This document shows positions 7,795-64,000 of a stretch of DNA of 64,000 bases, in pieces. Below the pieces are notes generated by a model that was not told the origin of the DNA, made no database searches, and saw only the letters and a program-made list of their open reading frames with translations. Origin of the DNA: Candidatus Dojkabacteria bacterium. Its GTDB lineage: Bacteria; Patescibacteriota; Dojkabacteria; J137. Both the position numbers and the translations under genes were made by a program. The stretch is from assembly GCA_030834985.1 (NCBI GenBank), contig JAUQWV010000002.1, positions 4,435 to 68,434 on the forward strand, written 5' to 3'. The stretch's first letter is position 1; the number at the start of each line of letters is the position of its first letter.

Positions 7795-8972
7795 AGCTTA
7801 CCCTGAACTGTAAAGATAATAGTTTCTGAATAATCGCTGGCGCTTAAAGTACTTTCATCCATTTTAGCTTTTATATAAAAAGCAGCTCTACCTTCAAAAA
7901 TAGGCTCTCCGGAAGTATTTAAAATTTCTACGCCTCCTGGATTAGATGTAACAGCTCCAACTGTGTTACCTGCTTGATTAAAATTAGTTGTAGCAATTAA
8001 AGGACCTAAAAAAGTTTCTGATATATTAAAATTTTGTAAACCATAACCAAAAACATTATCTAAGTTATCATTTACCGCTAGGATTGTATAATCCACTGAT
8101 GCGCTATAAAGGCCATCGTTAATGCTTGTTCCAAATATAGAAGCACCTGAAGTCATATTTGTTCCAAGATCAAACCAGATTAAATCAGATGCTGTAGTCA
8201 CACTGTTATAAGTTAGTGTTCCTAAGTCTATTAAATAAGGAGAACTTGTTTCGGCTGTACTACCTGCTGTATCTGAAAGATCAATATCAAAAATGATTTG
8301 TGGATATGCAGTAGTTGCACTTTGTGCACTGCCTGGAATACTTTCAGTAAAATCACCGTGCAGTGCTGTAATTCTTATATAATATGTTGTGTTAGGTGTT
8401 AAACTTAAAATATTGAATATTGGATTTTCCCATGAACTTTGAGTTAAATAATCATTAATATCGTGAGTAGCTTCTTCTTCAATTAAAAAAGTTGCACCAT
8501 CTATATACTGCCAGCTATTCCAATTAGAATCAGTAGTTATTTGTACACTATATAAAGTATCTGTAGGATTACTTTGTGGATCAATTTCAAATCTTGCTTT
8601 ATTAAAACATCCTCCTTGTCCACACACTTGTATCATACCGTTTACAATTGAAGGATTATTACAACCTGAGGATCCGCTTGTAGTAGTTTCAAAACAATGC
8701 ACTAACGGAACATTTGCCTGCCATGTATTTACAGCTCCGACTCCTATTCTGTAATGCTCAGAATTAAATCGTATATCGTTTAATATAGTATCTCCTGTTA
8801 AAAGTAGTTTGGAATTTGTTCCTTCTAGATTATTTGAACCTGTTGTTGAAAATGAAAAATCAAGAATTTTTAAATTGTTTGAATCAATATCTTCAGCGTA
8901 TGTGTTTACTGAAAATATTAAACTTACAAATAAAAGTGTAAATAAAATTTTTAAATTAAAATGTTTCTTCAT
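7791..8972 (-). CDS. Secreted hypothetical protein (signal peptide); C-terminal domain paralogous to 4783..5880
   Basis: It has an N-terminal hydrophobic leader (MKKHFNLKILFTLLFVSLIFSVNTYA) and C-terminal similarity to the 4783 protein. Confidence 0.5.
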   Translation of the reverse strand: MKKHFNLKILFTLLFVSLIFSVNTYAEDIDSNNLKILDFSFSTTGSNNLEGTNSKLLLTGDTILNDIRFNSEHYRIGVGAVNTWQANVPLVHCFETTTSGSSGCNNPSIVNGMIQVCGQGGCFNKARFEIDPQSNPTDTLYSVQITTDSNWNSWQYIDGATFLIEEEATHDINDYLTQSSWENPIFNILSLTPNTTYYIRITALHGDFTESIPGSAQSATTAYPQIIFDIDLSDTAGSTAETSSPYLIDLGTLTYNSVTTASDLIWFDLGTNMTSGASIFGTSINDGLYSASVDYTILAVNDNLDNVFGYGLQNFNISETFLGPLIATTNFNQAGNTVGAVTSNPGGVEILNTSGEPIFEGRAAFYIKAKMDESTLSASDYSETIIFTVQGKL

Positions 8973-9083
8973 TTAAAAACATTCTAAGTGTTTATAAGTT
9001 TTGAAGTCAATCAAACCTTATAAATTATTGACACCAATATTTAATTTCTATAAGCTAGTTAGTGAATACTCATTAACGAAAAC

Positions 9084-48468: not shown

Positions 48469-48720
48469 TTACGCGGCAACGGGGTTTGCTTCAAAATCTT
48501 CTACCTTGATGGCGATTTCAAGTCCTTCGCCACCTACAAAAGGTAGGACAGATTTGACCGAGGCTAGACCTTCGTTGCCGTGGGGCGCGTCCAACTCGAC
48601 CTGCAAGAAGGTCCGTTCGCTCAGTGTTTGAGGGAAGGCGATAAATTCTTGCAGATGTTTGTTAAACCAATAAATGGATGCGCCGTTTTTGTTTACCTTG
48701 ACTTCCATGGTTTCCTCCAC
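48469..48720 (-). CDS. Small hypothetical protein (83 aa) in GC-rich island
   Basis: It is followed (on the minus strand) by the perfect hairpin 48433..48461. Confidence 0.35.
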   Translation of the reverse strand: MEETMEVKVNKNGASIYWFNKHLQEFIAFPQTLSERTFLQVELDAPHGNEGLASVKSVLPFVGGEGLEIAIKVEDFEANPVAA

Positions 48721-49112: not shown

Positions 49113-49187
49113 TTTTATAGAGAATTACAAGCTTTAAGAAGCTTTCAGGAGGCTCGGGCCAAAGCCCGAGCCTCCTTATATGAAGGA

Positions 49188-49451
49188 CTAATTGGCAAGG
49201 TCTTGACTGTCGACAATGTCGGTTAGGAACACAAAACCTTCCACAACTCCTTGTCCTTCCGTGATGTCGATAGCAAGCATTGACTCTACCATTTCATTGC
49301 CGTTGCTATCGTTACCCAGTGTTACTAGGTTGCATGACTTTATCGTATATGATTCTGGCGGTACTGTTCCCGCTTCTTCAAATTCTTTCCCTGAATGAAC
49401 ATAATAAGGGATCTCCTCATCTTCAAGGACTTCAAGCACGAGCGATGCCAT
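49188..49451 (-). CDS. Small acidic hypothetical protein (87 aa) in GC-rich island
   Basis: It is followed by the perfect hairpin 49148..49175. Confidence 0.35.
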   Translation of the reverse strand: MASLVLEVLEDEEIPYYVHSGKEFEEAGTVPPESYTIKSCNLVTLGNDSNGNEMVESMLAIDITEGQGVVEGFVFLTDIVDSQDLAN

Positions 49452-49493: not shown

Positions 49494-50738
49494 TCAATAA
49501 ATGAATTTTTCGTCATCTTTTTCGTCGTCATAGACAGTTTTGATGACTATCTCCTTTTCTGGGTTTTCTGAAGCATGCATTTCATCCAAAATTTCGTCTG
49601 CTTTTGATCTACGTTTGCCTCGTTTTTTAAGAACAAATACAACAGCAAAGCTAACAAAGATGAAAGCGATTCCAAGAATAAAAGCAAGAACATCTGTTCT
49701 TAAATTACTGAATATTAGAGCTATTGTACATACAACTACCATCATTGCTGTTTCAATAAGGGTTACTGTTTTTTTTGAATAGCCGGCATCCAAAAGCCTA
49801 TGGTGTAAGTGATTTTTATCACTTATCTGTAATATTTTTAACGGAGTTTTAATTAATTCAGGGTTGGATTTAAACCTCATATAAACAACTAAAATACCGT
49901 CTATAATTGGCATTGCTAGTATAATCAATGAAGCTGTCCATTTAGTACTACCCAAAATTGCAAATACTGCCAATAGAAATCCATTAATATAGTCGCCAAT
50001 TGATCCATACATAATTTTTCCTGGTGGATAGTTAAAGGGTAAAACTCCTAAAGTTGCTCCTAAATGGATTCCAATAAGAGCAGCTAACACAATATTTCCA
50101 TTGGCCAGGTTAATTAATAGTAATGTTACTAATGCAATGCTGGTTACGGAGCCATTTAATGCGTCTACACCTCCCACCCAATTAACAACATTAATTAGAC
50201 CTACAATCCATAATATAGTTAGAATATCTGCAGGGAATATAAAGTTATAAGTAAATCCTGCAAATCTAATGATCGTAGAAAACCAGTCAAAATGCAGTTG
50301 AATATCTAAAAAGTTTATTGATGTAATGCTGATTCCTGAAGCAACAACTATTGCAGCAGCTAACAATTGTCCAAGCAGCTGCAGTTTACTGTTTAATTCA
50401 AATTTATCATCTAAAAAGCCTGTAATAGCAATAATTATTATCCCAAGGATTACACCTTTTCCTACAGTAACAAAATCTCGGTTTAAAAATAGAGTAATTA
50501 AAATTGCACTTACAACTGCTAATCCCCCTAGTTTAGGATAAACATATTCATGAATTCTAGTTGCAATTCCTCTTTCACCTTTTGTCCTTAGCCTTGCAGG
50601 AAGATCCAATGCTCCAATTTTTAATGCTAGTTTACCCATTAGTGGGGTAAGAAGGAATGCAATTATAAAAGCAGTCAAAACAATTCCTGCAATTAAACTA
50701 AAATTGTTAGCTATGTATGGATTGGTAAATAAGTCCAT
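49494..50738 (-). CDS. Glycosyltransferase family 4 polyprenyl-phosphate N-acetylhexosamine-1-phosphate transferase (WecA/TagO-like; MraY superfamily) with basic/acidic C-terminal tail
   Basis: It has about 10 TMs, the DD motif (GFLDDKFEL), NVVNWVGGVDALNG (the NxxNxxDGxDGL equivalent) and HLHHRLL (the WecA-type HIHH motif). Confidence 0.7.
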   Translation of the reverse strand: MDLFTNPYIANNFSLIAGIVLTAFIIAFLLTPLMGKLALKIGALDLPARLRTKGERGIATRIHEYVYPKLGGLAVVSAILITLFLNRDFVTVGKGVILGIIIIAITGFLDDKFELNSKLQLLGQLLAAAIVVASGISITSINFLDIQLHFDWFSTIIRFAGFTYNFIFPADILTILWIVGLINVVNWVGGVDALNGSVTSIALVTLLLINLANGNIVLAALIGIHLGATLGVLPFNYPPGKIMYGSIGDYINGFLLAVFAILGSTKWTASLIILAMPIIDGILVVYMRFKSNPELIKTPLKILQISDKNHLHHRLLDAGYSKKTVTLIETAMMVVVCTIALIFSNLRTDVLAFILGIAFIFVSFAVVFVLKKRGKRRSKADEILDEMHASENPEKEIVIKTVYDDEKDDEKFIY

Positions 50739-51719: not shown

Positions 51720-52844
51720 ATGTCTCAAACAACAGAAATGATGTCTGCAATTAGACAGATTGCAGCAGAACGAAAAATTGATGCTGATGAAATTTTAGAG
51801 GCTATTAAATTCTCTTTAAAAACTGTTTTCATGGATTCCCATGGTATCGACAAAGAGAGTGGAGACTATGTAGAAGTCAATATGGATCCAGAGCAGGGTG
51901 ATCTATCTGTAACTGTAACTAAAGAAGTTGTAGATATACCTAGCAAAAATATTTTAGAAATTAGCCTTGATGAAGCTAAAAAGCTTAAAAAGAATGCTCA
52001 AGTTGGCGATTCTGTTAAAGTTGATGTAACTGGCGATGTAGATTTCGGCAGAATCGCCGCTCAAACCGCTCGTCAGGTAATTTTGCAAAAACTCAGAGAT
52101 TCTGAAAAGGAAGCTGTACTTAGACAGTTTACTGATAAAGTAGGTAAAATTATTAATGTTACAGTTCAAAGAGTATTACCTGAAGGTGATGTGATATGCG
52201 AAGTGGGTAAGGCAAAAGCAATTATGCCAAAAGAAGAGCGGGTAATGACAGAATTTTATAGACTGGGTTCTCAATTAAAAGTTCTCTTAAAGGCTATTGA
52301 CGAAGATATTAAAGGCAAATTTATGCTTATTTCTAGAGCAGATCCTGCATTCTTAGAAGAGCTTTTTGCTATGGAAATTCCAGAAATTGAATCTGGAACT
52401 GTAGAAATTATGAATATAGCTCGAGAAGCAGGTTCTAGATCAAAAGTTGCTGTAAGAAGTGTATCACAAGGTGTAGACCCAATTGGATCATGTGTTGGTC
52501 AAAAAGGTGTAAGAATTAATGCAATTTCTAACGAATTGAAAAATGGTAACTTTGAAGAAAAGATTGATATCATCTTGTGGGATGAAAACATTGAACAGTA
52601 CATAATGAATGCTATTAGACCAGCAAATTCAATAAGAGTAGAGATTACAGATAAAAAAGAAAAGACAGCGTTAATTGTTGTTCCCGATGATGAATTATCA
52701 TTGGCAATAGGTAAAGATGGTCAAAATGCAAGATTAGCATCTAAGCTAACTGGCTGGAATTTAGATATTGAGGGTGAAAGCGGACCTGGATCTAAGGCTT
52801 CAGAGGAAGAAATTCAGGAAGAAGCTACACCTGCTGTTGAGTAA
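51720..52844 (+). CDS. nusA: Transcription termination/antitermination factor NusA
   Basis: It has the N-terminal RNAP-binding domain, S1, and two KH motifs (GSCVGQKGVRINAI, AIGKDGQNARLASKLTGW). Confidence 0.9.
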   Translation: MSQTTEMMSAIRQIAAERKIDADEILEAIKFSLKTVFMDSHGIDKESGDYVEVNMDPEQGDLSVTVTKEVVDIPSKNILEISLDEAKKLKKNAQVGDSVKVDVTGDVDFGRIAAQTARQVILQKLRDSEKEAVLRQFTDKVGKIINVTVQRVLPEGDVICEVGKAKAIMPKEERVMTEFYRLGSQLKVLLKAIDEDIKGKFMLISRADPAFLEELFAMEIPEIESGTVEIMNIAREAGSRSKVAVRSVSQGVDPIGSCVGQKGVRINAISNELKNGNFEEKIDIILWDENIEQYIMNAIRPANSIRVEITDKKEKTALIVVPDDELSLAIGKDGQNARLASKLTGWNLDIEGESGPGSKASEEEIQEEATPAVE

Positions 52845-52848
52845 TTTT

Positions 52849-53199
52849 ATGAGTGTTCCTGTAAGAACCTGTATAGTAACAAAACAACGACATAATAAAT
52901 TTGATATGGTTAGGATAGTCTACTTTAACGACTACGTTAAAGTAGACCCTACTTTTAAAGAAAAGGGCAGAGGAGTTTATGTTCTTCCGGATCTTACAGT
53001 TTTTGACGAAGGAATTTTAAAGCACAGAATTGAACAAGGGTTAAAACTCAAGAGAACACTTGAGCAGGTTGAAGTTCTAAGATTAAAACAAGAATTTGAA
53101 GAAGCTGTAAAATTAAGAGAACAGGAAGCTTTAGAAGAGCATCAGGAAAAAATTGAAGAATTAAGAGCAGAAGAAGAGAATAAGCCGACAAATATTTAA
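52849..53199 (+). CDS. ylxR: YlxR/RnpM (DUF448) family RNA-binding protein
   Basis: It lies immediately after nusA. VPVRTCIVTK...GRGVYVLPD matches the YlxR RTC...GRGaY signature. The start is taken at the ATG at 52849 (the track ORF starts inside nusA). Confidence 0.75.
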   Translation: MSVPVRTCIVTKQRHNKFDMVRIVYFNDYVKVDPTFKEKGRGVYVLPDLTVFDEGILKHRIEQGLKLKRTLEQVEVLRLKQEFEEAVKLREQEALEEHQEKIEELRAEEENKPTNI

Positions 53200-53208
53200 C
53201 AAATACTG

Positions 53209-53281
53209 GCCCTATCGTCTAGTGGTCTAGGACATCACATTCTCAATGTGGTAACCCGGGTTCGAGTCCCGGTAGGGTCAT
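53209..53281 (+). tRNA. tRNA-Glu (anticodon CUC), CCA not encoded
   Basis: It has a cloverleaf: acceptor GGCCCTA/TAGGGTC, a D-arm, an anticodon stem TCACA/TGTGG with loop TTCTCAA, and a T-arm CCGGG-TTCGAGT-CCCGG. Confidence 0.8.
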
Positions 53282-53626
53282 AATATTGTTTTTCTCAGAT
53301 TTTTCTTCAATTGTTTCGTCTATAAATTCGAACAGTAAAGACTTTTTAATGGTTCGTAATCTGACTTCTGAACTACTATTGAAAAGGATACCTTCTGGAA
53401 AAATTTTAGTAAGAAAACGTCTTTTATTTGTAGGACTGAAGCCCATATACAGTGGTTCGAGGTTTGTAAGAAATAGTTCAGCTTGATTTAACAAAACTTC
53501 GAGCTCATTACGATCAATTAGGTTCTCACTTACTTCTAATTTAGCAACAGCAATTCCATTTATAATTCTACTTAATTCCTCTTTTCCTGCTTCTTCTGGA
53601 AACACTCCCTTCTTTATAAGTTCCAT
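53243..53626 (-). CDS. Hypothetical protein (127 aa); 3' end of the ORF runs into the tRNA on the opposite strand
   Basis: The open frame extends further upstream to about 53790 without another ATG, so a non-ATG start is possible. No motif was recognised. Confidence 0.3.
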   Translation of the reverse strand: MELIKKGVFPEEAGKEELSRIINGIAVAKLEVSENLIDRNELEVLLNQAELFLTNLEPLYMGFSPTNKRRFLTKIFPEGILFNSSSEVRLRTIKKSLLFEFIDETIEEKSEKNNIMTLPGLEPGLPH

Positions 53627-53975
53627 AGTTTTGATTTTATCCTCTTCTAAACTTTGCAGTCTGATTTCAGCTAATCTCCTAGCTACTTCAAAATCTTCGT
53701 GTTCCTTTTCCCATTTTTTTACAACTGTTTCTTTAAAGAATTCAGCATATTCTTTAGTAGGAGTTATAGATCTTAAATATGCTATAGGGAATGAATTTAT
53801 TTTTTGTTACTTAGATTAACTAAGTAAAAACAACTTTAGTTGATTATAAGGTATTAGATAAATGAAAATTATTAAAATTGAATAGTTACCTTAATTTTTA
53901 AAAATTAAATATGGCAGATCCAATTTCAAATCACCATATTTCCGATCACTATCATCTGATATAGAACTTGATTTT

Positions 53976-54365
53976 ATGAATAAAGAAGAGGTGTTGAATA
54001 ATTTGAATACAATTATAAACTTATTACATGAAAGGAAAATAATACCGAGCAATCAGGTAATACTTTGGTCATTACAGCTTGCAGGAATTAAACATTTCGG
54101 TAATGATTTCAACTTCCATAATTCCATGTACTCAACATTAAATGATTTATCTATTAAGAATGATATTAATTCAATGCAAATAACACTACCTAAACAGGAT
54201 GGATCTAATTTTATTGAATTTGATAAGGTGAAAAGTTATCATATACAACAATACAAAGATAGGAAAAGAATTGTAAAGACTCAAACAAAAAAATCAAGGG
54301 TAAATGATATTCCCAACTTATACTTACATTTGATGGAATTAGAGAAAATTCAAATGGTGAATTAG
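53976..54365 (+). CDS. Hypothetical protein (129 aa)
   Basis: It is an ORF in an otherwise degraded-looking AT-rich region with no motif. A NUDIX-box-like fragment follows in another frame. Confidence 0.3.
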   Translation: MNKEEVLNNLNTIINLLHERKIIPSNQVILWSLQLAGIKHFGNDFNFHNSMYSTLNDLSIKNDINSMQITLPKQDGSNFIEFDKVKSYHIQQYKDRKRIVKTQTKKSRVNDIPNLYLHLMELEKIQMVN

Positions 54366-54453
54366 AATTTCTATTAACGAAAAGATTAAAGCATACTTTC
54401 TATGGAAAGATTGCTGAACTTACAGGGAAAATAAGATTTGGAGAAGACTTTGA

Positions 54454-54630
54454 AGAAGCAGCAAGGTAAAAGGCGATTTTAATAACGATAAAATTGTAAA
54501 TTTATCTGACTTAAGTATATTAGCTACATATTGGAATCAAAATTCAAGTGTTGCTGATGCAAACAACGATAATGTTGTAAATATATCTGATCTAAGCATC
54601 TTGGCTCAAAACTGGATGCAGGGTTTTTAA
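54454..54630 (+). pseudogene. Orphan 3' gene fragment encoding only a tandem dockerin-like module (no start codon; frame opens after a TGA)
   Basis: It translates to KGDFNNDKIVNLSDLSILATYWNQNSSVADANNDNVVNISDLSILAQNWMQGF*. It is about 80% DNA-identical to the 3' ends of the NHL genes at 57235-57393 and 60820-60977. Confidence 0.6.
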
Positions 54631-54633
54631 ATA

Positions 54634-57393
54634 ATGAAATACATAAAAGTCATAATAACTTTTATTTTTATAGTAATTTTAAGTGCGGCGCCGCTTAATC
54701 TTTATCCAAATTTATTAGCGGAGAGCGCCGTGCGTGGAGTTCCTGGTGATGGCTGGGCCGATGTAATAATCGGCCAGCCTGATTTTTCAGAAGTCTCACC
54801 GTATTCGGTTGTTTCAACTATGATGCATCTTCCTCACGGAGTCTATATTGATACTAATAATCCACTAGATAATAAGATGTATGTTTCAGATGCAGGGAAT
54901 AACAGAATATTAGGTTATAACCTTGCAGAGTGTTTGGAATCAGAAACAAATCCTTTAAATTGTGAACCAAACATAATAATAGGACAGCCAAGTGCGAATA
55001 CATCTGCATGTAATGGAGATTCTGCATATCAAAATTACCCAATACGTGCGCCGGCAACTGCATCTACACTTTGTTTATTGCAAGAAGATCAGCTTTCAAT
55101 TTCAGAAGGCGGCTCTGGCGCAAGTATGGCGGTTGATAGTCAAGGTAATTTATATTTCCCTGACTTTTGGAATAATAGGGTCTTAAAATATAATGCTCCC
55201 CTTTCAGAAGACACAAGTGCCGGTAAAGGAGACGCAATTGCAGATGAAGTCTGGGGGCAGGCTGATTTTACAGGAATACTTTGTAATCGTGGACTTGCGC
55301 AGCCAGCTGCTAATACTTTATGTTTTAGCTGGGGTAATTCAAATAACTGGACAGCAGGTGTAGATATAGATAGTCAGGATAATTTATGGATAGTTGATAG
55401 TGGTAATAATAGAGTTTTAAGATTTAATAATACTTCCGGTTCAATTAGTAAAACTCCAAGCCTAGTTTTAGGACAATCAAATTATACAAGTGCTACATCT
55501 GGAAGTACATTAAGCAAGCTTAGAGATCCTAATGCTGTTAGAGTTAACGATGATGGTGTAGTTTACGTTTCAGAAAGATACAATAATAGAATTCTTAAAT
55601 TCAGTCCACCTCTAACTAATGGAATGAGCGGGTCAACTTTTGGTTCAGGGTTTAATGCGCCATCAGGAGTAGATTTTGACCCCACAGAACCAGACAGCTT
55701 ATGGATATCTAATACTAACGATAATTCATTAGAATTATGGAGTGAAAATTCAGGTACTCTTGTTAGAACATTAGGCGGTGCAGATGGAAATATCATAGGA
55801 GATGTTACGGGCTCTATTGGAGTGGATTCAGAAGGTAATGTTTATGCAGCAACGGGATTAGGTAATTACAATAATACAGTAATTATATTTGAAAAAGATG
55901 GTGATGATGTTATTCCTTCCACTACTTTAACTCAGCCAACATCAGTAGGTAATTTTAAGGATATTAATCAATTAGCTGTTGGCAGAGGGTTGGCTGTTAC
56001 TGAAGATCAAGTTATTGTTGCAGATCAAGATAGGATAATGTTCTGGAATACTCCAAATGGTATAACAGATCTATATACAGGAAAGCCGGCAGATGGAACG
56101 GTTAGCAGGCCTACGGAAGACTACGGACCTTGCTGTATGTATCTTAAAACTGACGAAGATGGACACTTATACACATCTTTTGGCACGCATAATCTGCCGG
56201 CTAGAATTGCGGTATACAATCTGCCGCTTACACAGGGTGAAATACCATTTAAGGAAATCGCATTTCCTTTGAATCTTTTAGGCGGAGGAACAATACAAGC
56301 TGGACCATCTTATTCTGACGGTATTCCAGGCTTTTTGCCCACACCACATTCGGAGTTCTTATGGGTTTCGACAAGTATGTATAACAGAGTAGTAAGAATA
56401 CGTGATCCTTTAGGTGTTAGTCCGGTAGTTGATTATGTAATAGGGCAAACTAACGCTACTAATAACCAATGTAATCGAGGAGGCAACCCTGTAAGTGGAG
56501 CAACAAGTGTGACTATATGTAATGCAGGTGCATTAGCGCTTGATCGGTTTGGAAACTTTTATCTAGCTGATCACTGGCTAGAAGCATATGGCAATAATAG
56601 AACTTTAATATACTTAAACGGGACCTTGCCTACCGATAACACATCAGTTATTTATAATATTATTGCACCGGACGTAATTGTTCAGAATATTGCTATGTGG
56701 GAGCCAGCATTTGATTCGCAAAACCGGATGGTAGTAGGTTTTAATCCTTATTGGACAGGAACACCTTTTCCGATAGAAGATAGATGGTTTCCTGCGGTAT
56801 ATGAAGATATCATTGATTCAGGCAGTGGAACTCCGGATTATTTCCTAAAAGATTACCATTCTATGGTATTTAACGCAGCTTTTGATGAAGATGATAACCT
56901 TTATATTACAGATTTAAATCGAGGTAGAGTTCTAATATACTTGGCGCCACTTGCCGATAATAATCCCCAACTAACGCAAGTCACTCCAGTACCATCAGTA
57001 GTTTCTGATAGAACCCCTAATTATACTTTCCATACAGATAAAGCAGGTACTTTAACGTATGGAGGTGATTGTTCAAGTTCAGTTACAAACGCAGTAATAG
57101 GAAACAACACTATTACATTTAATACTTTATCTATTGGTATTCACTCTAACTGTACAATAAGGCTTACAGATAGTCAGGATTATCAAAGTAACATCTTAAA
57201 TGTAAACACATTTACTATTAGCTTTAAATCCCGGGGAGATTTCAACAGCGATGGCAATATTAACTTATCTGATCTAAGTATACTTGCTACATATTGGATG
57301 AAATCTAATACAGCTGCAGATGCTAACAATGATAATTCTGTAAATATATCTGACTTAAGCATTCTAGCTCAATACTGGATGCAAAATTTTTAA
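54634..57393 (+). CDS. Secreted NHL-repeat beta-propeller protein (919 aa) with C-terminal tandem dockerin-like module
   Basis: It has a signal peptide and repeated NHL-type blades (GNNRILGYN, NNRVLKYN, GNNRVLRFN, NNRILKFS). The C-terminus is RGDFNSDGNINLSDLSILATYW...DANNDNSVNISDLSILAQYWMQNF. Confidence 0.7.
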   Translation: MKYIKVIITFIFIVILSAAPLNLYPNLLAESAVRGVPGDGWADVIIGQPDFSEVSPYSVVSTMMHLPHGVYIDTNNPLDNKMYVSDAGNNRILGYNLAECLESETNPLNCEPNIIIGQPSANTSACNGDSAYQNYPIRAPATASTLCLLQEDQLSISEGGSGASMAVDSQGNLYFPDFWNNRVLKYNAPLSEDTSAGKGDAIADEVWGQADFTGILCNRGLAQPAANTLCFSWGNSNNWTAGVDIDSQDNLWIVDSGNNRVLRFNNTSGSISKTPSLVLGQSNYTSATSGSTLSKLRDPNAVRVNDDGVVYVSERYNNRILKFSPPLTNGMSGSTFGSGFNAPSGVDFDPTEPDSLWISNTNDNSLELWSENSGTLVRTLGGADGNIIGDVTGSIGVDSEGNVYAATGLGNYNNTVIIFEKDGDDVIPSTTLTQPTSVGNFKDINQLAVGRGLAVTEDQVIVADQDRIMFWNTPNGITDLYTGKPADGTVSRPTEDYGPCCMYLKTDEDGHLYTSFGTHNLPARIAVYNLPLTQGEIPFKEIAFPLNLLGGGTIQAGPSYSDGIPGFLPTPHSEFLWVSTSMYNRVVRIRDPLGVSPVVDYVIGQTNATNNQCNRGGNPVSGATSVTICNAGALALDRFGNFYLADHWLEAYGNNRTLIYLNGTLPTDNTSVIYNIIAPDVIVQNIAMWEPAFDSQNRMVVGFNPYWTGTPFPIEDRWFPAVYEDIIDSGSGTPDYFLKDYHSMVFNAAFDEDDNLYITDLNRGRVLIYLAPLADNNPQLTQVTPVPSVVSDRTPNYTFHTDKAGTLTYGGDCSSSVTNAVIGNNTITFNTLSIGIHSNCTIRLTDSQDYQSNILNVNTFTISFKSRGDFNSDGNINLSDLSILATYWMKSNTAADANNDNSVNISDLSILAQYWMQNF

Positions 57394-57436
57394 TTTTGCT
57401 GTAAATTATCTTTATTACTTATTATCTCCTCTTCCT

Positions 57437-58198
57437 ATGTTTTCACTGCAAGATAAAGTTGCAATAGTTACTGGCGCTGCTTCTGGGCTAGGTAAGGAGA
57501 TTGCTCTTTTGTTCGCCAGACAAGGTGCAAAGGTTGTTGCTGCTGACTATAACAAAGAAGCATTAGATCAATTCAAAAGTCAGATCTCTACAGACTTGAC
57601 AATTTCACCAGTAGCAGGTGATATTTCTAATTTAGAAGATGTTAAAAATATATATGCTCATGCTCAAAGTGAATTCGGCGGCGTTGATATTGTTGTAAAT
57701 AATGCTGGAGTTATGGATAAGTTAGAACCTATTGGAGACTTATCAGACGAAGTATACGATAAAGTTATAAACACAAACCTAAAAGGAACTTTTTATATGA
57801 TGAGAGAAGCTGTAAAGATATTTGAAAAGAAAAGAGCCGGCACAATTGTGAACATCGCATCAATCGCTGGACTTGAAGGTGGAAGAGCAGGAGCAGCTTA
57901 TACTGCCAGCAAACATGGAATCATCGGTTTAACAAAGAATACAGCATACTTTTATACAAAGGCAAATATTAGAGTGAATGTAATCGCTCCTGGTGCAATG
58001 AAAACAAATATAATGAGCGGTAATATCGATTTATCGAATATAAGTGATTTAGTTAAGTCAATGTTGTCTACACAGGGTAATCAAAAGGTGGCAGATCCAT
58101 CGGAAGTTGCAAATGTAGCATTATTTTTAGCTTCAGATGAAGCAAGCTTTGTAAACGGAGCTGTAGTAGTAGCAGATGGAGGTTGGACGACATACTAA
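57437..58198 (+). CDS. Short-chain dehydrogenase/reductase (SDR) family oxidoreductase
   Basis: It has VAIVTGAASGLGKEIA (TGxxxGxG), NNAGV and the catalytic YTASK (YxxxK) with an upstream Ser. Confidence 0.85.
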   Translation: MFSLQDKVAIVTGAASGLGKEIALLFARQGAKVVAADYNKEALDQFKSQISTDLTISPVAGDISNLEDVKNIYAHAQSEFGGVDIVVNNAGVMDKLEPIGDLSDEVYDKVINTNLKGTFYMMREAVKIFEKKRAGTIVNIASIAGLEGGRAGAAYTASKHGIIGLTKNTAYFYTKANIRVNVIAPGAMKTNIMSGNIDLSNISDLVKSMLSTQGNQKVADPSEVANVALFLASDEASFVNGAVVVADGGWTTY

Positions 58199-58205
58199 AC
58201 TTTTT

Positions 58206-60977
58206 ATGTTGAATAAAAGACTATGTGCTACAGCGTTTATATTGCTTGTACTAATTAGTGCATTTTCTTTTTATACCAATATTAATGCAGCCGCAGTAAG
58301 AGGCATATCGGGTGATTTTTGGGCTGATACAATTTTAGGCAAAAGAGATTTTACCGAAATGGGATTAAACAAGATTGTTGATTATGAAGTTTTTAATCCA
58401 GGTGGAGTAACTATTGATAATAGTGTTGAAGACGGCAGAATGTATGTATGGGATTCTGGAAATAATAGGATTTTAGGTTTGAATCTAGGAGATTTAGATG
58501 GCTCACCATACCATGCTGATATTGTAATTGGCCAGCCGTCTGGAACAGATTGGGGTGCTTGTAATCAAGATGGTAGCTTTCAAAATGATCCCAATTCATC
58601 TATTCCCAATGCTTCTACATTATGCGGTATTCCCGATTACACGCACACAACTGGAGAACATAAAACTTTCTCTAATATGTTTGTGGATAGCTCTGGCAAT
58701 TTATATGTTCCGGATATATTTAATAATAGGGTTTTAAAATACAATTCTCCATTTACAACAGATACAATAGCAGATGAAGTTTGGGGACAACCTAACTTTA
58801 GTGGGCAAAGATGTAATTTAACTACACAAAGATTTGAGTGGCCACCGCCGGCGCCAACAGCAGCTTCGATTTGTTTTTCGTATTGGGATGGCGCCGGCGG
58901 TGGCGGTGCAGTTATTGATTCAGAAGGGAATCTTTGGATAGCTGATTCACTTAATAATCGTGTTCTAAGATTCCCTTCAGTAGAAGGCACGATAAGTAAA
59001 ACTGCAAATCTAGTGCTAGGTCAATCTAACTTTACAACAGGCCCAGAGGCAGGAGGCAGTGCAATAAATAAATTATCTGCACCTCAATCCGTAAGATTTG
59101 ATGATTCAGGCAAGTTATATGTTGCAGACTCCGGTAATAATAGGGTTATAGTCTTTACTCCTCCTTTTACAACAGGAATGAATGGGAGTGTTTTCTTGTC
59201 ATCGTCGTCATTTGAAGAAGCAGTTCAAGGTTTAGAGTTTAGTATAGATAAAACCAGACTATATACACTTTCTAATCCAGGCCCAGTTGTTGATGAATGG
59301 GATTTAGCAGGAAATTATATTCAAGAAGTTGGCGGCGGATACAATTGGGGCGGAGGCAGTATTGGAGTAGATCTAAATGACAATGTTTATTTAAGTGACT
59401 ATATTTATGGTCAGCACGTTTACCAGTTTGTAAGACAGATAAATGATTCTTACGAGATAGGTATTACTTTTTTCCATGATGAAGAAGGAATAGGTTTACG
59501 AATGTTTAATGAAGTAGCGGCAGATAGATCTATTGCGCCTGCAGGCATAAAAACAATAGATGATAGGGTTTATGTTGCAGATGGAAGATTATTATTTTGG
59601 GATAATAAAGATGAATTAACAAATGGACAAGCTCCAGATGGTTATTTAAACTCAACTTCTTTTACAGACTTACCTAATCAAAATTACAGATATGATTCAC
59701 AAATTCAGGTTGATGAACAAGGACGGTTATGGGCCGCCGCCAACAACTTTTACGAAGGTGGCAGAGTTGATGTTTTCTTTCCGCCAATAAATTCTGAAGA
59801 TACCCCAGATTTAACAATAAATGGCACAATACCTCTTGTTGGCGGCGGCTCTATAACAATTGGAATGGATGGCGAAAACTCAGTAGGTTTTAACGGTATA
59901 GAAGTTTCAGATGATGCTCAATATTTATGGATTACAGAAACGAATAGACACCGGGTAATAAGAATTAAAGATCCATTAACTAACCCTGTAGTTGATGTAA
60001 TACTTGGCCAAGTAAACTCTACTGGTAAAACATGCAATCGTGGTTTAAGTGGTTATGATTGGGATGCAAATCCTACTTACTTATGTTTACCGTCATACTT
60101 AAGTTTTGATAATTTTGGCAACTTATATGTTAGCGATCACTTCTTTGAATGGGATGGGAATTATAGACTTTTAATGTTTACTGCAAATACATTTCCTGAT
60201 GATTTAACTTCAGTTTTATATGCTCCGGCAGCAAAAAAGGGCTTTCCTGCTGCCAGTTTTGAGGTTACATTTGATGAGGAAAACACAATGGTATTGGGTA
60301 CTAATCCATATACAGGTAATAGATATTTAAGATACTATAATAATCCGCAGAATTTTAATCCTTCTAATCCATTTGATACAGCGTTTAACACTTATGTAGG
60401 AACGCTCAATGATTTTTACGGCTGGCCGATTGGATTAGAATTTGATGAAGAAGGTAACTTATATGTAGGAGATGGTAATAGGGGAAAAATTTTGATATAT
60501 GACCGACCTTTTAATACATCTAATACACTACCTGTTTTAACACAAGTTACTCCAGTGCCAACACCGACTATAGATTCAACTCCAGACTATACCTTTAATT
60601 CTACAAAAGCAGGGACAATAAGCTATGGTGGTAGTTGTTCAAGCACAACGACTATAGCAATCACTGGTAATAATACTATCACCTTCAATCATTTAGCTGA
60701 TGGAACTTATTCTAACTGTACAATAACAGTAAGTGATAGCCTTGATAATAGCAGTAATGTGTTAAATGTTTCAGCTTTTACAATAACCGCAAGAACTCAT
60801 TTTCTTAGGACAAAAGGAGATTTTAATACAAATGGGAAAATTGATTTGTCAGATTTAAGCATACTTGCTACGTACTGGCTACAAGCCAATGCTATTGCAG
60901 ATGCTAATCTTGACGGTGTTACAAATATATCTGATCTTAGCATTTTGGCTACCTATTGGCTGCAAAACTTTTCTTAA
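58206..60977 (+). CDS. Secreted NHL-repeat beta-propeller protein (paralog of 54634..57393) with C-terminal tandem dockerin-like module
   Basis: It has a signal peptide (MLNKRLCATAFILLVLISAF) and NHL blades (GNNRILGLN, NNRVLKYN, NNRVLRFP, GNNRVIVF). The C-terminus is KGDFNTNGKIDLSDLSILATYW...DANLDGVTNISDLSILATYWLQNFS. The start is taken at the ATG at 58206. Confidence 0.7.
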   Translation: MLNKRLCATAFILLVLISAFSFYTNINAAAVRGISGDFWADTILGKRDFTEMGLNKIVDYEVFNPGGVTIDNSVEDGRMYVWDSGNNRILGLNLGDLDGSPYHADIVIGQPSGTDWGACNQDGSFQNDPNSSIPNASTLCGIPDYTHTTGEHKTFSNMFVDSSGNLYVPDIFNNRVLKYNSPFTTDTIADEVWGQPNFSGQRCNLTTQRFEWPPPAPTAASICFSYWDGAGGGGAVIDSEGNLWIADSLNNRVLRFPSVEGTISKTANLVLGQSNFTTGPEAGGSAINKLSAPQSVRFDDSGKLYVADSGNNRVIVFTPPFTTGMNGSVFLSSSSFEEAVQGLEFSIDKTRLYTLSNPGPVVDEWDLAGNYIQEVGGGYNWGGGSIGVDLNDNVYLSDYIYGQHVYQFVRQINDSYEIGITFFHDEEGIGLRMFNEVAADRSIAPAGIKTIDDRVYVADGRLLFWDNKDELTNGQAPDGYLNSTSFTDLPNQNYRYDSQIQVDEQGRLWAAANNFYEGGRVDVFFPPINSEDTPDLTINGTIPLVGGGSITIGMDGENSVGFNGIEVSDDAQYLWITETNRHRVIRIKDPLTNPVVDVILGQVNSTGKTCNRGLSGYDWDANPTYLCLPSYLSFDNFGNLYVSDHFFEWDGNYRLLMFTANTFPDDLTSVLYAPAAKKGFPAASFEVTFDEENTMVLGTNPYTGNRYLRYYNNPQNFNPSNPFDTAFNTYVGTLNDFYGWPIGLEFDEEGNLYVGDGNRGKILIYDRPFNTSNTLPVLTQVTPVPTPTIDSTPDYTFNSTKAGTISYGGSCSSTTTIAITGNNTITFNHLADGTYSNCTITVSDSLDNSSNVLNVSAFTITARTHFLRTKGDFNTNGKIDLSDLSILATYWLQANAIADANLDGVTNISDLSILATYWLQNFS

Positions 60978-61127: not shown

Positions 61128-64000
61128 ATGAAGAATTCAAGGCAGCATTTCAATGTAGTTATATTAGATGATGATTTTCTAATAAAAGAAGTACTAAAGA
61201 AACTGATAAAACGTTATCTGCCTGATGCAGAATTTTTCGTTTCTAATAATGGACTTGAAGGTATTGGTTTGATTGAACTTCATGCGCCTCAGCTAATAAT
61301 TGCAGATGCTACATTGCCTAAATATGCTGGTGCAGAGTTAGTAAATCGTTTAAAAAATACTAAAGGTTTTACTGCAGATACAAATGTTGTATTTCTTCAT
61401 GAAAGTGATAAATTCCCAGAATTAAATGATCCTGCAATTATTAAGTTAAATAAGAGTGATATATCTTTCATTAAAGAATTTGAAAAATACCTTGCTTTTA
61501 CTTTTTCTAAAACACCACAATACAGCTTTAGAGAAAAAGCTCAAAATATTTTAGGTGGAGTAATTGTAAAAGTAAGCAATTATTGTGATGTTTTAATGCA
61601 TAGTGTTTCCAAAAGTAGATCGCTTTTACATATTCCCAGATACCTTATTTGGATAATTTTGCAAGTATATTTAAGCTTTGTAATGACAATTTTTTATATC
61701 TTTACAGGGGGTCGGGTTCCTGAAAATAAAAATACTTCTGCTAGAGAATTAACATTGTATAGAGTGCGGTACTATCCAACAATTGTAACAATTACTTTAG
61801 CTGTAATTGGGATTGTATTTCAAACATTTGCATTTTTAGTAGCAGGACTTGCAATATTAAATCAAAATATAAACTTTTTAATAGCACAAAGTGTATGTCC
61901 ATTGCCTGCTGCTCCTTCTATAATTAATAATCAGGTAACCTTAACTCCAGACAATGAGGATGGAATAATTGATTGCTCGGCTGTAGATATTATAGTTGGG
62001 TCAACTGGAGAATTAATAATAGAAAAAAGAGTAGATGGTAATGGCAATACACAAGGCGACTATGGTGTAACACTTTTAGTAAATAATTTAACAGTACAAA
62101 GCGGAGGAAAGGTTAATGCAGACGGCAAAGGATATAGCATAGTTGAAACGGATGCTGGAGCAGGAAAAGGTGGAAGCTCTTCTGGTCAAACTGGTGGAGC
62201 TGGTGGAGGTCATGGTGGAGCCGGTGGTCAAGGTATTGAAGATGGTGTCAACGCATCAGGTTTTGGAGGAACTCCGTATGGTAATAATGAAACTCCAATT
62301 ACACTTGGAGCCGCTGGTGGTAATGGCGGAAATACTGCAGGTAACTTTCAGCGTAGCTGGTCAAGTAATGCACACTTTACGGCTTTAGGTACAAGCTTTT
62401 CTGAAGGGTTAGAATCTCCAGTTGCTGGAGGTTTGGCTTTAAAAGCAAGTTCTCAAGATCCTCTAACATATTCAACTGGTGAGCAGACTTGGTTTTCTGG
62501 AATTATAGATGCTGCTCAATTCGAACTATTTAAACCAACTAATATAACTGCAGACTGGACCTTAGACGGTACAGATAATATTGCACCTAAATTTCAGATA
62601 TGGGGTTCTGCTACAGGAAGCTTTTCTGGTGAACAGGCAGTATATCCAGCAGCGGATGCTTATTATCAAAATGGAGGTACTTATTCAATTAACGATAACT
62701 CACAGCTTTCAATAACTGATCAGGTGCAAACATTCTATAGATACTGGCAAGTTAAAATTATTCTTGAAACAGGAGCTACTGATACAGATACACCAAAGGT
62801 GGTGTCGTTAACTATTAATGGAGCGACGCAACAATCTTCGAATCCTTCGGGCGGAGCAGGTGGAGGCGCATTAAAGATTGTTGCGTCGCAAGCAGTAGTA
62901 ATCGATGGAACTATCTCTGCTAATGGTCTAGATGGTCAAGCTTCTGGCAATACTTCCGGTGGAGGTGGCGCAGGAGGAAGCATTTGGATCCTAGCCAATA
63001 CATTTGCAGGTAGCGGTAGTGTGCAGGCTAAAGGTGGTAGTGCTGCAGAAGTTACATATCAAGGTGGAGGTGGCGGAGGTGGAAGAATTGTAATGCTTTG
63101 TACAACAAGCAACGGATTTACCGGTACAGCCAGTGTGACTCCAGGAGTAACCGCTAATTCACAAGATGGAGGAGTAGGAACAATTATTGGAGCAACGTGT
63201 AGTCCAAATGCTCCTACAATTTTAAAACAATTTAAATCTAATCAATTAACTGAGGTACCTATTGGAGGTATAACAACAGAGTCTACTGTTGTATTTGTTG
63301 GTGATTTATCCGATGTAGACGCCTCTGATGTATTGTCTTTACAAATAGAAGTAAGACCATTAGGTCAAGAATTTACAGGTGTTCCAACTCATACACAATC
63401 AACTGCATTTGCAAATCCTCAGCCATGTTCTTCACCTGTTGCAAATTGTGGAAGAATTACTGTTACAGGAATGACAAGATCTTTAGAATACCATTGGAGA
63501 GCTAGAGTCAGAGATAATAAAGGTGGTTATAGTGCATGGATAAGTTTTGGAGCTAATAATGAAAATGAAAGAGATATTTTATTAACAGGTAATCCAGCAG
63601 CAATTCAATTTGTATCTGGCAACTCGCAAAGTGGTACGGTAAATACGAATCTGCCAAGTCCTTTAGTAGTAAGAGTTGTTGATGTTGAAGGGTATCCTGT
63701 ACCCGGCTATACAGTTAATTGGACCGTAGTGGCTGGTGCAACAGGCGGTCAGCTAGTAGCTGGAAATGCTGTTACAGATAATGATGGTTATAGTTCACGA
63801 ACTTATAAGCTAGGGCAAAAGATAGGTACTAATACAATTAGAGCAGCCGGCTCAGGCTTGGCAGGAAGTCCTATCGACTTTTCTGCAACGGGTAATCCAG
63901 ATGTAATTGCCAAATTTACTGTAACTGGACCTCAATACGCTATTACAAATGAACAATTTGGCCCTGTGACTGTCACAGCTTACGATCAATATGATAATGT
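61128..64000 (+). CDS. Giant protein (3' partial, >957 codons; missing from the ORF track because it runs off the window): N-terminal REC receiver domain, two TM helices, a long Gly-rich beta-helix-like repeat region and a Big_1 (invasin/intimin-type) Ig-like domain
   Basis: I read the frame codon by codon from the ATG at 61128 to the window end and found no stop. The REC hallmarks are VVILDDDF (the acidic pair), IIADATLP (phospho-acceptor Asp), VVFLHES and IIKLNK (Lys). The TMs are YLIWIILQVYLSFVMTIFYIF and TIVTITLAVIGIVFQTFAFLVAGLAIL. The Gly-rich repeats are GGAGGGALKIVAS...GGGGAGGSIWILANTF...GGGGGGGRIVML. The Big_1-like domain is PLVVRVVDVEGYPVPGYTVNWTVVAGATGGQLVAGNAVTDNDGYSSRTYKLG. Confidence 0.65.
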   Translation, partial: MKNSRQHFNVVILDDDFLIKEVLKKLIKRYLPDAEFFVSNNGLEGIGLIELHAPQLIIADATLPKYAGAELVNRLKNTKGFTADTNVVFLHESDKFPELNDPAIIKLNKSDISFIKEFEKYLAFTFSKTPQYSFREKAQNILGGVIVKVSNYCDVLMHSVSKSRSLLHIPRYLIWIILQVYLSFVMTIFYIFTGGRVPENKNTSARELTLYRVRYYPTIVTITLAVIGIVFQTFAFLVAGLAILNQNINFLIAQSVCPLPAAPSIINNQVTLTPDNEDGIIDCSAVDIIVGSTGELIIEKRVDGNGNTQGDYGVTLLVNNLTVQSGGKVNADGKGYSIVETDAGAGKGGSSSGQTGGAGGGHGGAGGQGIEDGVNASGFGGTPYGNNETPITLGAAGGNGGNTAGNFQRSWSSNAHFTALGTSFSEGLESPVAGGLALKASSQDPLTYSTGEQTWFSGIIDAAQFELFKPTNITADWTLDGTDNIAPKFQIWGSATGSFSGEQAVYPAADAYYQNGGTYSINDNSQLSITDQVQTFYRYWQVKIILETGATDTDTPKVVSLTINGATQQSSNPSGGAGGGALKIVASQAVVIDGTISANGLDGQASGNTSGGGGAGGSIWILANTFAGSGSVQAKGGSAAEVTYQGGGGGGGRIVMLCTTSNGFTGTASVTPGVTANSQDGGVGTIIGATCSPNAPTILKQFKSNQLTEVPIGGITTESTVVFVGDLSDVDASDVLSLQIEVRPLGQEFTGVPTHTQSTAFANPQPCSSPVANCGRITVTGMTRSLEYHWRARVRDNKGGYSAWISFGANNENERDILLTGNPAAIQFVSGNSQSGTVNTNLPSPLVVRVVDVEGYPVPGYTVNWTVVAGATGGQLVAGNAVTDNDGYSSRTYKLGQKIGTNTIRAAGSGLAGSPIDFSATGNPDVIAKFTVTGPQYAITNEQFGPVTVTAYDQYDN

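Follow-up and report, generated by a model that had tools for sequence, protein, structure and literature searches.

An orphan dockerin-coding segment beside tRNA-Glu as the probable 3' remnant of a third NHL-propeller gene in Candidatus Dojkabacteria

The locus lies near the right end of a 64,000-nucleotide stretch of a Candidatus Dojkabacteria contig, which was analysed as a whole and is called the window here. Two long propeller genes enclose an SDR gene, and a short dockerin-coding segment stands directly upstream of the first long gene. The main features are as follows.

54457 to 54630, forward strand: orphan dockerin, read here as the probable last 58 codons, stop included, of a lost paralog (gene 0)
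54634 to 57393, forward strand: gene 1 (919 aa), with a signal peptide, tandem NHL-type beta-propellers, an Ig-like module and a type I dockerin (57235-57393)
57437 to 58198, forward strand: classical SDR of the cytoplasmic type (253 aa), Pfam adh_short_C2 with E 2e-61
58206 to 60977, forward strand: gene 2 (923 aa), with the architecture of gene 1 and a dockerin at 60816-60977; its ORF opens at 58176
54472-54630, 57235-57393 and 60816-60977: the three dockerin-coding copies

The NHL repeats of genes 1 and 2 were recognised by Pfam with 56.8 and 55.1 bits, where the cut-off is 20. For gene 1, AF2 predicts an all-beta fold (pLDDT 81), and a Foldseek search with this model matched double-propeller proteins and NHL six-blade propellers. 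PorZ (5m11), the periplasmic sensor domain of BT4663 (4a2l/4a2m) and the NHL six-blade propellers were matched with E values from 1e-14 to 4e-16. However, the identities are 8-22% and the query-normalised whole-chain TM-scores are 0.13-0.31, values from which no function is transferable. The Ig-like module plus dockerin tail is also specific to the gene 1/gene 2 family. Judging from the model, the intact genes would encode secreted double-propeller proteins, which are presumably held at the cell surface via the dockerin. No cohesin was matched among the 10 largest ORFs of the window. For gene 2, the sequence itself makes the ATG at 58206 the more likely start, as it would give the signal peptide MLNKRLCATAFILLVLISAF; the alternative ATG at 58176 would create a 23-nt overlap with the SDR gene.

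The first-pass annotation had described genes 1 and 2 as clear paralogs produced by a tandem duplication, with the SDR gene perhaps carried along in it. The paralogy was confirmed over the full length, with 41% amino-acid identity. The tandem duplication was not borne out. Closer relatives exist in other organisms, with 53-55% identity for gene 1 and 45-49% for gene 2 against the mutual 41%. As members of different subfamilies, the two genes either arose by an ancient duplication or were taken up in separate events. The idea of a hitch-hiking SDR was not supported either: the spacer that separates gene 0 from gene 1 is 3 nt long and holds no SDR. In the relatives examined, the propeller genes are single-copy with no SDR nearby. 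The SDR, which NCBIfam places among glucose 1-dehydrogenase/FabG-like proteins, belongs to no repeated unit; an identical protein is recorded in 50 blocks of the assembly collection. Gene 1 and P0001 had no record in exact look-ups, and a contig scan with gene 1 alone gave no match. A profile scan of contigs retrieved distant relatives only (at most 53% identity). These belong to Chloroflexota, Patescibacteria and other phyla, and a close genome was not among them.

A local HMM run on the six-frame translation found exactly three dockerin copies in the window, with E values of 5e-33, 1e-32 and 2e-31. The three copies could be aligned at the DNA level, as had been claimed, but their pairwise identities are 77%, 74% and 72% rather than about 80%. 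The third copy starts at 60816, and the earlier position of 60820 was 4 nt out of register. All three score above the gathering cut-off of 22.9 bits for Pfam Dockerin_1 (PF00404): 34.4 bits for the orphan (E 2.6e-8), 36.2 bits for gene 1 and 28.4 bits for gene 2. Like the type I dockerins of clostridial cellulosomes, all three copies consist of two tandem Ca-binding loop-helix segments of about 22 residues, with the patterns DFNxDGxxxLSD... and DANxDxxxNISD...; in the orphan these segments are GDFNNDKIVNLSDLSILATYW and ADANNDNVVNISDLSILAQNW. In contrast with the cellulosomal proteins, the dockerins here are found on non-enzymatic double beta-propellers and not on glycoside hydrolases. The orphan further differs in having Lys in place of the usual Gly in its first Ca-binding loop and in having no protein body. 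The dockerins of genes 1 and 2 form the C-terminus of a secreted protein, which is not true of the orphan. It has no signal peptide, and its frame holds no ATG, GTG or TTG that would yield even 20 codons. As the first-pass annotation had observed, it has no start codon and opens directly after an in-frame TGA (54454-54456). Its stop codon, TAA at 54628-54630, ends 3 nt upstream of the gene 1 ATG at 54634.

The origin of the orphan became clearer when the window was compared with contigs of other strains. It lies at the right edge of a variable segment linked to tRNA-Glu, of which at least four haplotypes (A, B, C and D) exist; the window carries haplotype B. The features of this region are listed below.

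53207 to 53281, forward strand: tRNA-Glu (CUC), found by ARAGORN; the strain-variable segment is bounded on the left by its 3' end
53282 to 54456: haplotype B-specific segment of 1175 bp, delimited by blastn of the window against 20 strain contigs
53243 to 53830, reverse strand: recombinase-like gene remnant (listed ORF 53243-53626, frame open upstream to about 53830)
53976 to 54365, forward strand: ORF of 129 aa for which no family was found, within the replaced segment
52100 to 56250: tract in which haplotypes A and B diverge strongly, with 1-14, mostly 3-10, mismatches per 100 nt in sliding counts
58657 to 59350, forward strand: stretch of gene 2 that is deleted in other strains (694 bp, out of frame)

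The window is homologous to haplotype A up to 53280, next to the last base of the tRNA gene (53281), and again from 54456-54460. The latter is a unique sequence just upstream of the dockerin. The 1175 bp between these breakpoints are unrelated to haplotype A, in which 2046 bp (L083 4974-7019) stand in their place, with a GLUG-repeat ORF and the initial 165 codons of a gene 0 remnant. The same tRNA-Glu was found in L083, L111 and L001. The window junction was seen again in 12 contigs from 10 sequencing runs, which are 99.3-100% identical to the window over 53282-54640. Both haplotypes occur together in some runs, for example SRR27197503, SRR25397370 and SRR30634667. No SNP was found within the 1175-bp insert across the 12 haplotype-B/C contigs, though their flanks vary. 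From about 56250 to the end of the window, haplotypes A and B differ at only a few sites. To the left of about 52100 their divergence is mostly low, with a second divergent patch at 49934-50333. The allele patterns among the contigs form a clean mosaic, and alleles appear to be exchanged by homologous recombination around the variable segment. Since the strain contigs were assembled from short metagenomic reads, part of the mosaic could come from chimeric joins between strains.

Haplotype A (L083 and ten other contigs, plus P0121, which was seen on 51 contigs) carries at the same site an ORF of 222 codons that ends 3 nt upstream of gene 1. This ORF encodes the last propeller blade, the Ig-like module and the dockerin of the long genes. 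It aligns with residues 695-922 of gene 2 (58%) and residues 699-919 of gene 1 (57%), and its sequence reads MVTGYNPYAGIRFLEYYN...GDFNNDKVVNLSD... Its ATG corresponds to a conserved internal Met of the long genes. The orphan is 89% identical to the matching part of the L083 ORF, with 18 differences in 168 nt. The match to this longer ORF at the same position marks the orphan as the final 58 codons of another paralog, gene 0. The orphan shows the features of a 5'-truncated remnant: its homology is to the 3' end of paralogs, a longer orthologous version exists in other strains, and it is not translatable alone. The first-pass annotation had held that its model would fall if the fragment were part of a longer intact ORF in a corrected assembly. 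A longer ORF does occur in other strains, but it is still truncated. Intact gene 0 was absent from all strains and databases searched, the 222-aa query having been run against 5.8 billion proteins and the JGI metagenomes. Its best relative is P0065 of another organism, with 66% identity. Since no intact gene 0 was found, the full-length ancestor is deduced from the paralogs and P0065; the remnant falls into the same subfamily as gene 2.

The orphan is very probably the 3' end left from a third NHL-propeller/Ig-like/dockerin gene, gene 0, the body of which was lost via DNA replacement beside tRNA-Glu. Gene 0 would once have been part of the same operon-like array, immediately before gene 1. A mobile element may then have integrated at the 3' end of tRNA-Glu, which is the most likely route, and a later deletion would have taken out most of the element together with the body of gene 0. 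The stretch from the tRNA-Glu 3' end to about codon 165 of the surviving C-terminal part of gene 0 would thus have been replaced by 1175 bp of foreign DNA, which brought a decayed recombinase-like 3' end and the 129-aa orphan ORF. We infer that an integrase-mediated insertion caused the loss of the body. In haplotype A, a second and independent truncation would have removed the first ~700 codons of gene 0 by a different event, setting gene 0 head-to-head with the GLUG-repeat ORF. Both truncations seem to be recent; in the dockerin segment that the haplotypes share, nearly all differences are synonymous. The remnants of gene 0 would have lost their function, and the orphan would be a non-coding relic.

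The frame of the recombinase-like remnant runs into the 3' end of tRNA-Glu. From its homologs, the reading frame at 53243-53830 probably encodes the C-terminus of a large serine recombinase; the assignment as a recombinase is a weak one. Two homologs with 71-73% identity, P0241 and P0242, have a CxxC...YYC..C motif, and their matches to Pfam Zn_ribbon_recom are weak and below threshold (E values of 0.006 and 0.037). Five of the six aligned database homologs, P0242 being the exception, run on into a sequence like a tRNA T-arm, and P0241 converges on tRNA-Glu in another organism. This family is tied to tRNA-Glu 3' ends in two organisms. The remnant gave nothing significant in PHROGs, Pfam at default thresholds, NCBIfam or PDB (the last searched with a single sequence and with a profile), and no catalytic recombinase domain or intact element was found. 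The 129-aa ORF had no Pfam, NCBIfam or PADLOC match and a weak PHROG match (E 0.028); an identical protein is recorded in 31 blocks of the assembly collection. No extra propeller fragments were detected in 53282-54471 by the local HMM on the six-frame translation.

The arrangement resembles the edge remnants of tRNA-linked genomic islands. The boundary falls exactly at the tRNA 3' end, the content varies among strains (haplotypes A-D) and includes accessory cargo, a recombinase-like remnant abuts the tRNA, and the neighbouring chromosomal gene is truncated. In haplotype C, the same spot is occupied by a defence island with a CBASS cyclase and GajA/GajB (Gabija), beside a degenerate copy of the tRNA 3' end. 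In L102, a degenerate copy of the tRNA end borders a further island. On the other hand, no intact integrase was found here, and the 24-nt tRNA end has no second copy in the window at up to 4 mismatches, so a distal direct repeat is lacking. A further difference is that the truncated gene comes from a decaying paralog array, in an uncultivated small-genome (Patescibacteria-like) host.

The alternative that survives best is that the orphan was kept for a function and would be an exapted element instead of a neutral relic. It would supply gene 1 with its promoter, 5' UTR or ribosome-binding context, or be translated from a non-canonical start. Two independent truncations both left the last 175 bp, ending 3 nt before the gene 1 ATG, and the sole deletion that removes the orphan (in L111) takes the gene 1 start too; however, two events are too few to claim a spared region. 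A promoter and terminator scan of 53200-54800 gave no more than chance, with 6 promoter sites against 7.7 expected from shuffled sequence, and haplotype B offers no start codon. A further point for a retained function is the low dN/dS of an intact frame. Between the orphan and its haplotype A counterpart there are 13 synonymous and 5 non-synonymous changes, which give a dN/dS of 0.063 (neutrality P = 1.2e-6); that of gene 1 is 0.07. Relaxed constraint, that is a dN/dS near 1 and disabling mutations, was therefore not found in the orphan. The value indicates that gene 0 was protein-constrained for most of the haplotype divergence, and it lowers the certainty that the orphan has long been functionless. 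Judged from these substitutions, the haplotype A remnant could instead remain translated and useful. We read the low dN/dS as a sign of recent truncation, which explains it equally well and has the SNP-free insert in its support. A retained function is regarded as quite unlikely.

The first-pass annotation had seen the stray third 3' end as fitting unequal recombination between the repeats, or gene conversion. It was right in seeing a bodiless remnant of a further paralog, and three related dockerin segments do lie in the same orientation within 6.5 kb in an array where strain-specific deletions happen elsewhere. However, the mechanism itself is very improbable. With its 72-77% identity the orphan is a copy of neither neighbour, and it is orthologous to the end of the distinct, longer haplotype A remnant. 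Neither breakpoint falls in a repeat: one is at the end of the tRNA, the other is in unique sequence, and foreign DNA separates the two. Third-codon-position identity is 0.46-0.62 in the dockerins against 0.49-0.55 in the adjoining blade/Ig-like part, so silent sites show no rise. The deletions elsewhere in the array rest on imperfect microhomologies of about 10 nt and not on paralogous repeats. An assembly artefact, in which metagenomic contigs were chimerically joined at repeated sequence, is hardly credible: the window does come from a metagenome-assembled genome (P0001 and P0243 are encoded on a contig of 72,984 bp) and the mosaic could include strain-chimeric assemblies, but the identical junction and insert recur across the independent runs and copies at 72-77% identity are too divergent to mislead an assembler.

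Two further candidates were rejected. To read the 129-aa ORF plus the dockerin as one frameshifted gene, two frameshifts would have to be assumed; such a gene also lacks a signal peptide, and haplotype A assigns the dockerin to gene 0. A silent cassette for dockerin switching was discarded because there is no conversion signal and only one such fragment. The orphan is an ordinary gene remnant at a strain-variable spot. Therefore, 54457-54630 should be labelled as a gene remnant in annotations, and it should serve neither as a gene call nor as evidence of repeat-driven rearrangement.

The other genes of the array are also affected in natural strains. The 694-bp deletion in gene 2, with the junction ACAACTGGAG|CGGAGG, was found in L094, L095, L096, L098, L100 and L111. 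In L111, gene 2 has two further nonsense codons, and gene 0 is fused to gene 1, the fusion lacking a signal peptide. Genes 1 and 2 are dispensable, given that inactivated copies are carried by circulating strains. The propeller/dockerin array is decaying in natural populations, which is ordinary genome plasticity. The locus is thus a well-resolved case of between-strain structural variation in an uncultivated small-genome bacterium, with a secreted propeller/dockerin family undergoing step-by-step inactivation. The repeated losses would be biologically meaningful if the surface proteins mediate host or phage contact. A more speculative reading, which we consider unlikely, is that the locus is a hotspot of recurrent selected loss rather than passive decay. 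The propellers would then act as phage receptors or host-contact proteins under antagonistic selection, with the orphan kept for gene 1 expression signals. It is suggested by the repeated knock-outs in co-existing strains (gene 0 truncated twice, the deletion and nonsense codons of gene 2, and the gene 0-gene 1 fusion) and by their occurrence at a tRNA-Glu site that also takes up Gabija/CBASS defence islands.

A dockerin-domain protein of the cell envelope, SEML1_0315, was reported to be essential in the Saccharibacterium Southlakia epibionticum, and its authors speculated that host-cell glycans are its target, in adhesion or degradation (PMC10633639). It is likened here by its description, as another dockerin envelope protein in Patescibacteria. 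While SEML1_0315 was reported as essential, the dockerin-bearing genes at this locus have been repeatedly inactivated in natural strains.

The orphan dockerin piece is best read as a gene remnant, recently truncated at its 5' end, that borders a strain-variable segment linked to tRNA-Glu. The features concerned are the following.

Features of the tRNA-Glu and propeller/dockerin region (window positions)
53207-53281, tRNA-Glu gene
53243 to about 53830, minus strand, recombinase-like reading frame that opens the replacing DNA and reads into tRNA-Glu
54634-57393, same strand as gene 2, gene 1, a 919-aa ORF with NHL and C-terminal Dockerin_1 matches (Pfam)
57437-58198, between gene 1 and gene 2, classical SDR gene, 253 aa, adh_short_C2 at E 2e-61 (Pfam)
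58176-60977, same strand as gene 1, ORF of gene 2, with NHL and C-terminal Dockerin_1 matches (Pfam)

The proteins of gene 1 and gene 2 align end to end with 41% identity, and both carry NHL and Dockerin_1. The first-pass annotation had called them paralogs with dockerin ends, and this was confirmed. The start of gene 2 is probably ATG 58206 rather than 58176, because a signal peptide is gained and the 23-nt overlap with the SDR gene is removed. The dockerin-coding stretch of about 160 nt is present three times, as had been claimed, at 54472-54630, 57235-57393 and 60816-60977; a dockerin profile search of the six-frame translation of the window matched exactly these three. The copies do align at the DNA level, but their pairwise identity is 72-77%, slightly below the earlier value of about 80%. 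The orphan frame begins, as described before, after a TGA (54454-54456) and has no usable start codon. Its dockerin exceeds the Pfam threshold, and 3 nt separate its stop codon from the gene 1 ATG.

Strain contigs were collected by exact-protein look-ups with the SDR protein and the 129-aa ORF upstream of the orphan. Dozens of same-species contigs from independent public sequencing runs were returned, and they sort into haplotypes. The arrangement of the window, haplotype B, was found on 12 contigs from 10 runs with 99.3-100% identity over 53282-54640. Therefore, an assembly artefact is ruled out as the source of the orphan. Haplotype A (contigs L083-L086 and L088-L091; its marker protein P0121 is on 51 contigs) is homologous to the window up to 53280, the penultimate base of tRNA-Glu, and again from 54456 on. 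Between these shared flanks there are 2046 bp in haplotype A versus 1175 bp in the window. The 2046 bp contain, on the minus strand, a 512-aa ORF in which GLUG repeats and a choice-of-anchor U domain occur. They also include codons 1-165 of a 222-aa ORF (MVTGYNPYAGIRFLEYYN...TPNYTFSSTKSGTITYSGGCSS...GDFNNDKVVNLSD...), which ends 3 nt 5' of gene 1. The 222-aa ORF aligns to residues 695-922 of gene 2 (58%) and 699-919 of gene 1 (57%), from the final propeller blade through the Ig-like module to the dockerin, and its ATG corresponds to an internal Met that is conserved in the family. The alignment identifies this ORF, judged by sequence, as the remnant of a third paralog, gene 0, and the orphan of the window as the final 58 codons of that gene. 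The idea of a bodiless remnant copy is thus borne out by a longer version at the same site. In a neighbour-joining tree, the gene 0 remnant falls with gene 2 in one subfamily (with database proteins P0053, P0065 and P0066) and gene 1 in the other (with P0002, P0003 and P0005). No intact gene 0 was found among the strains or database entries searched.

The earlier reading of the orphan as a remnant therefore stands, the source being a third paralog, but the mechanism proposed with it, unequal recombination or gene conversion between repeats, does not. The left breakpoint is the 3' end of tRNA-Glu, the right one (54456-54460) lies in unique sequence immediately 5' of the dockerin, and the intervening DNA bears no relation to the propeller/dockerin array. 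Silent-site identity is 0.46-0.62 among the three dockerins versus 0.49-0.55 in adjoining coding sequence. Because it is not raised, the DNA-level likeness of the dockerins reflects amino-acid conservation in an AT-rich genome rather than recent conversion.

The recombinase-like frame and an island in haplotype C point instead to mobile DNA that would integrate repeatedly at the tRNA-Glu 3' end, with later deletions eating into gene 0. The database relatives of the frame (P0241-P0247) are short, and five of six continue into tRNA T-arm-like sequence. The two longest have a CxxC...YYC..C motif and sub-threshold recombinase zinc-ribbon matches (E 0.006 and 0.037). P0241 is convergent with a tRNA-Glu gene in a different organism. 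The 254-aa homolog in another organism (L109 1143-1942 of GCA_964635995.1 and L110 1118-1917 of a Logan contig) likewise runs into a tRNA-Glu (UUC) at its 3' end, the tRNA being encoded on the other strand, so this ORF family appears tied to tRNA-Glu genes. No catalytic domain was seen in any member, and the frame is at best a tentative integrase candidate. In haplotype C (L102 1-4970, contig of logan:SRR31189353), a defence island lies at the position corresponding to just left of window 53258. It encodes a CBASS-type oligonucleotide cyclase whose sensor domain is AGS_C (PADLOC E 9e-58), GajA (E 1e-207), GajB (E 7e-103) and a protein of 299 aa that weakly matches a receiver domain. Directly to its right the tRNA 3' end recurs in degenerate form (GGGTTCGAGGTCTTTCCCCTTAGGGTCAT), and the recombinase-like remnant, the 129-aa ORF and the orphan come next, as in the window. 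Searches for an intact mobile element and for a distal att repeat found neither. The gene 0 remnant of haplotype A stands head-to-head with the GLUG ORF, 3 nt away, and the GLUG ORF starts inside its own repeats without a signal peptide. This looks like a separate deletion joining two divergent genes.

Per 100 nt, haplotypes A and B show 1-14 mismatches (3-10 in most places) over about 52100-53280 and 54456-about 56250. Only a handful of differences follow to the window end, and divergence left of about 52100 is mostly low, with a second divergent patch at 49934-50333. Across the 56 shared codons of the orphan there are 13 synonymous and 5 non-synonymous changes (dN/dS 0.063, P = 1.2e-6 against neutrality), indistinguishable from gene 1 (0.07). 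The 1175-bp insert has no SNPs across the 12 contigs. Together, these values argue that gene 0 was constrained and functional through most of the A/B allele divergence and was truncated recently and independently in each lineage. Other contigs switch cleanly between A and B allele types at differing points, which indicates allelic homologous recombination between co-existing strains; strain-chimeric assembly may account for part of the switches. Over 54456-57390, L087, L092, L095, L100 and L102 carry block-wise window-type and haplotype-A-type alleles of the orphan and gene 1, and L095 and L100 are A-type over a short patch between 54548 and about 54700. Truncated remnants at tRNA-linked segments are already known; the lineage is a little-studied one. 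At the level of populations there is some interest in the four haplotypes, the double truncation by independent events, the recombination tracts and the defence island at the same site, none of them surprising.

The propeller/dockerin array is decaying. A 694-bp out-of-frame deletion in gene 2 (58657-59350), at an imperfect microhomology of about 10 nt, has an identical junction in six contigs, on haplotype B (L094-L096, L098 and L100) and haplotype A/D (L111) backgrounds. In L111 (JGI contig Ga0226835_1000885), gene 2 has two nonsense codons besides this deletion. At 6001-9024 of the same contig, a deletion of about 400 bp removes the dockerin of gene 0 together with the start and signal peptide of gene 1, fusing gene 0 remnant codon ~139 in frame to gene 1 codon ~53. 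The product (P0252) is a chimera of 1007 aa that lacks a signal peptide; with gene 2 disrupted as well, all three paralogs look inactive in L111. For a cultivated Saccharibacterium, a dockerin-domain envelope protein is reported to be essential, and its authors speculated on host-glycan targeting (PMC10633639), whereas the dockerin-bearing genes here are clearly dispensable.

In the AlphaFold model of gene 1 (pLDDT 81, pTM 0.71), the signal peptide forms a helix at the N-terminus; the other three parts are an all-beta body, a beta-sandwich at residues ~780-862 and a dockerin of two helices. Its tandem-propeller matches in Foldseek were the BT4663 periplasmic domain, LRP6 E1E2 and PorZ; six-blade NHL propellers were also matched. 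Proteins with this propeller body occur widely, in Chloroflexota, Patescibacteria, Acidobacteriota and other phyla, and the module at the C-terminus is interchangeable (dockerin, SLH, Fn3, Ig-like). Among the window's ten largest ORFs, none gave a cohesin match. The nearest genome, OY969472.1 (a 1.14-Mb chromosome), keeps the order GT4, hypothetical, NusA, tRNA-Glu; its one propeller/dockerin gene lies about 7.5 kb further downstream, and no SDR is close to it. The P0065 and P0066 homologs are single-copy, in unrelated contexts and without SDR. The SDR gene is thus no conserved partner, nor does it belong to a duplicated unit, given the 3-nt spacing between gene 0 and gene 1. Its proposed role as a hitch-hiker of the duplication is not supported.

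The Ig-like module (gene 1 residues ~780-862, gene 2 equivalents, L083 6760-7020), with the pattern TPxYTFxSxKAGTIxYGGxCSS...NCTI, has many matches, mostly at 57-69% identity. Most are short proteins of 187-202 aa, the larger share of them from ENA metagenome assemblies (Tara and marine-metagenome entries among these), and many carry Pfam PF19077 or PF16967. Close relatives excepted, the propeller body is far less similar to outside proteins than the module is. Two short stretches that lie upstream of the Glycos_transf_4 gene, 48507-48710 and 49172-49433, are missing in the haplotype A contigs L083 and L111; one of them corresponds to an 87-aa minus-strand ORF present in some strains only. At 61128-64000, a very long ORF continues past the window end. 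It begins with a response-regulator receiver domain and goes on through transmembrane segments to a large extracellular part, Gly/Thr-rich, in which a Big_1 domain lies. Its 95.8% identical allele in L085 and L086 is split by a frameshift into 250 aa and more than 846 aa.
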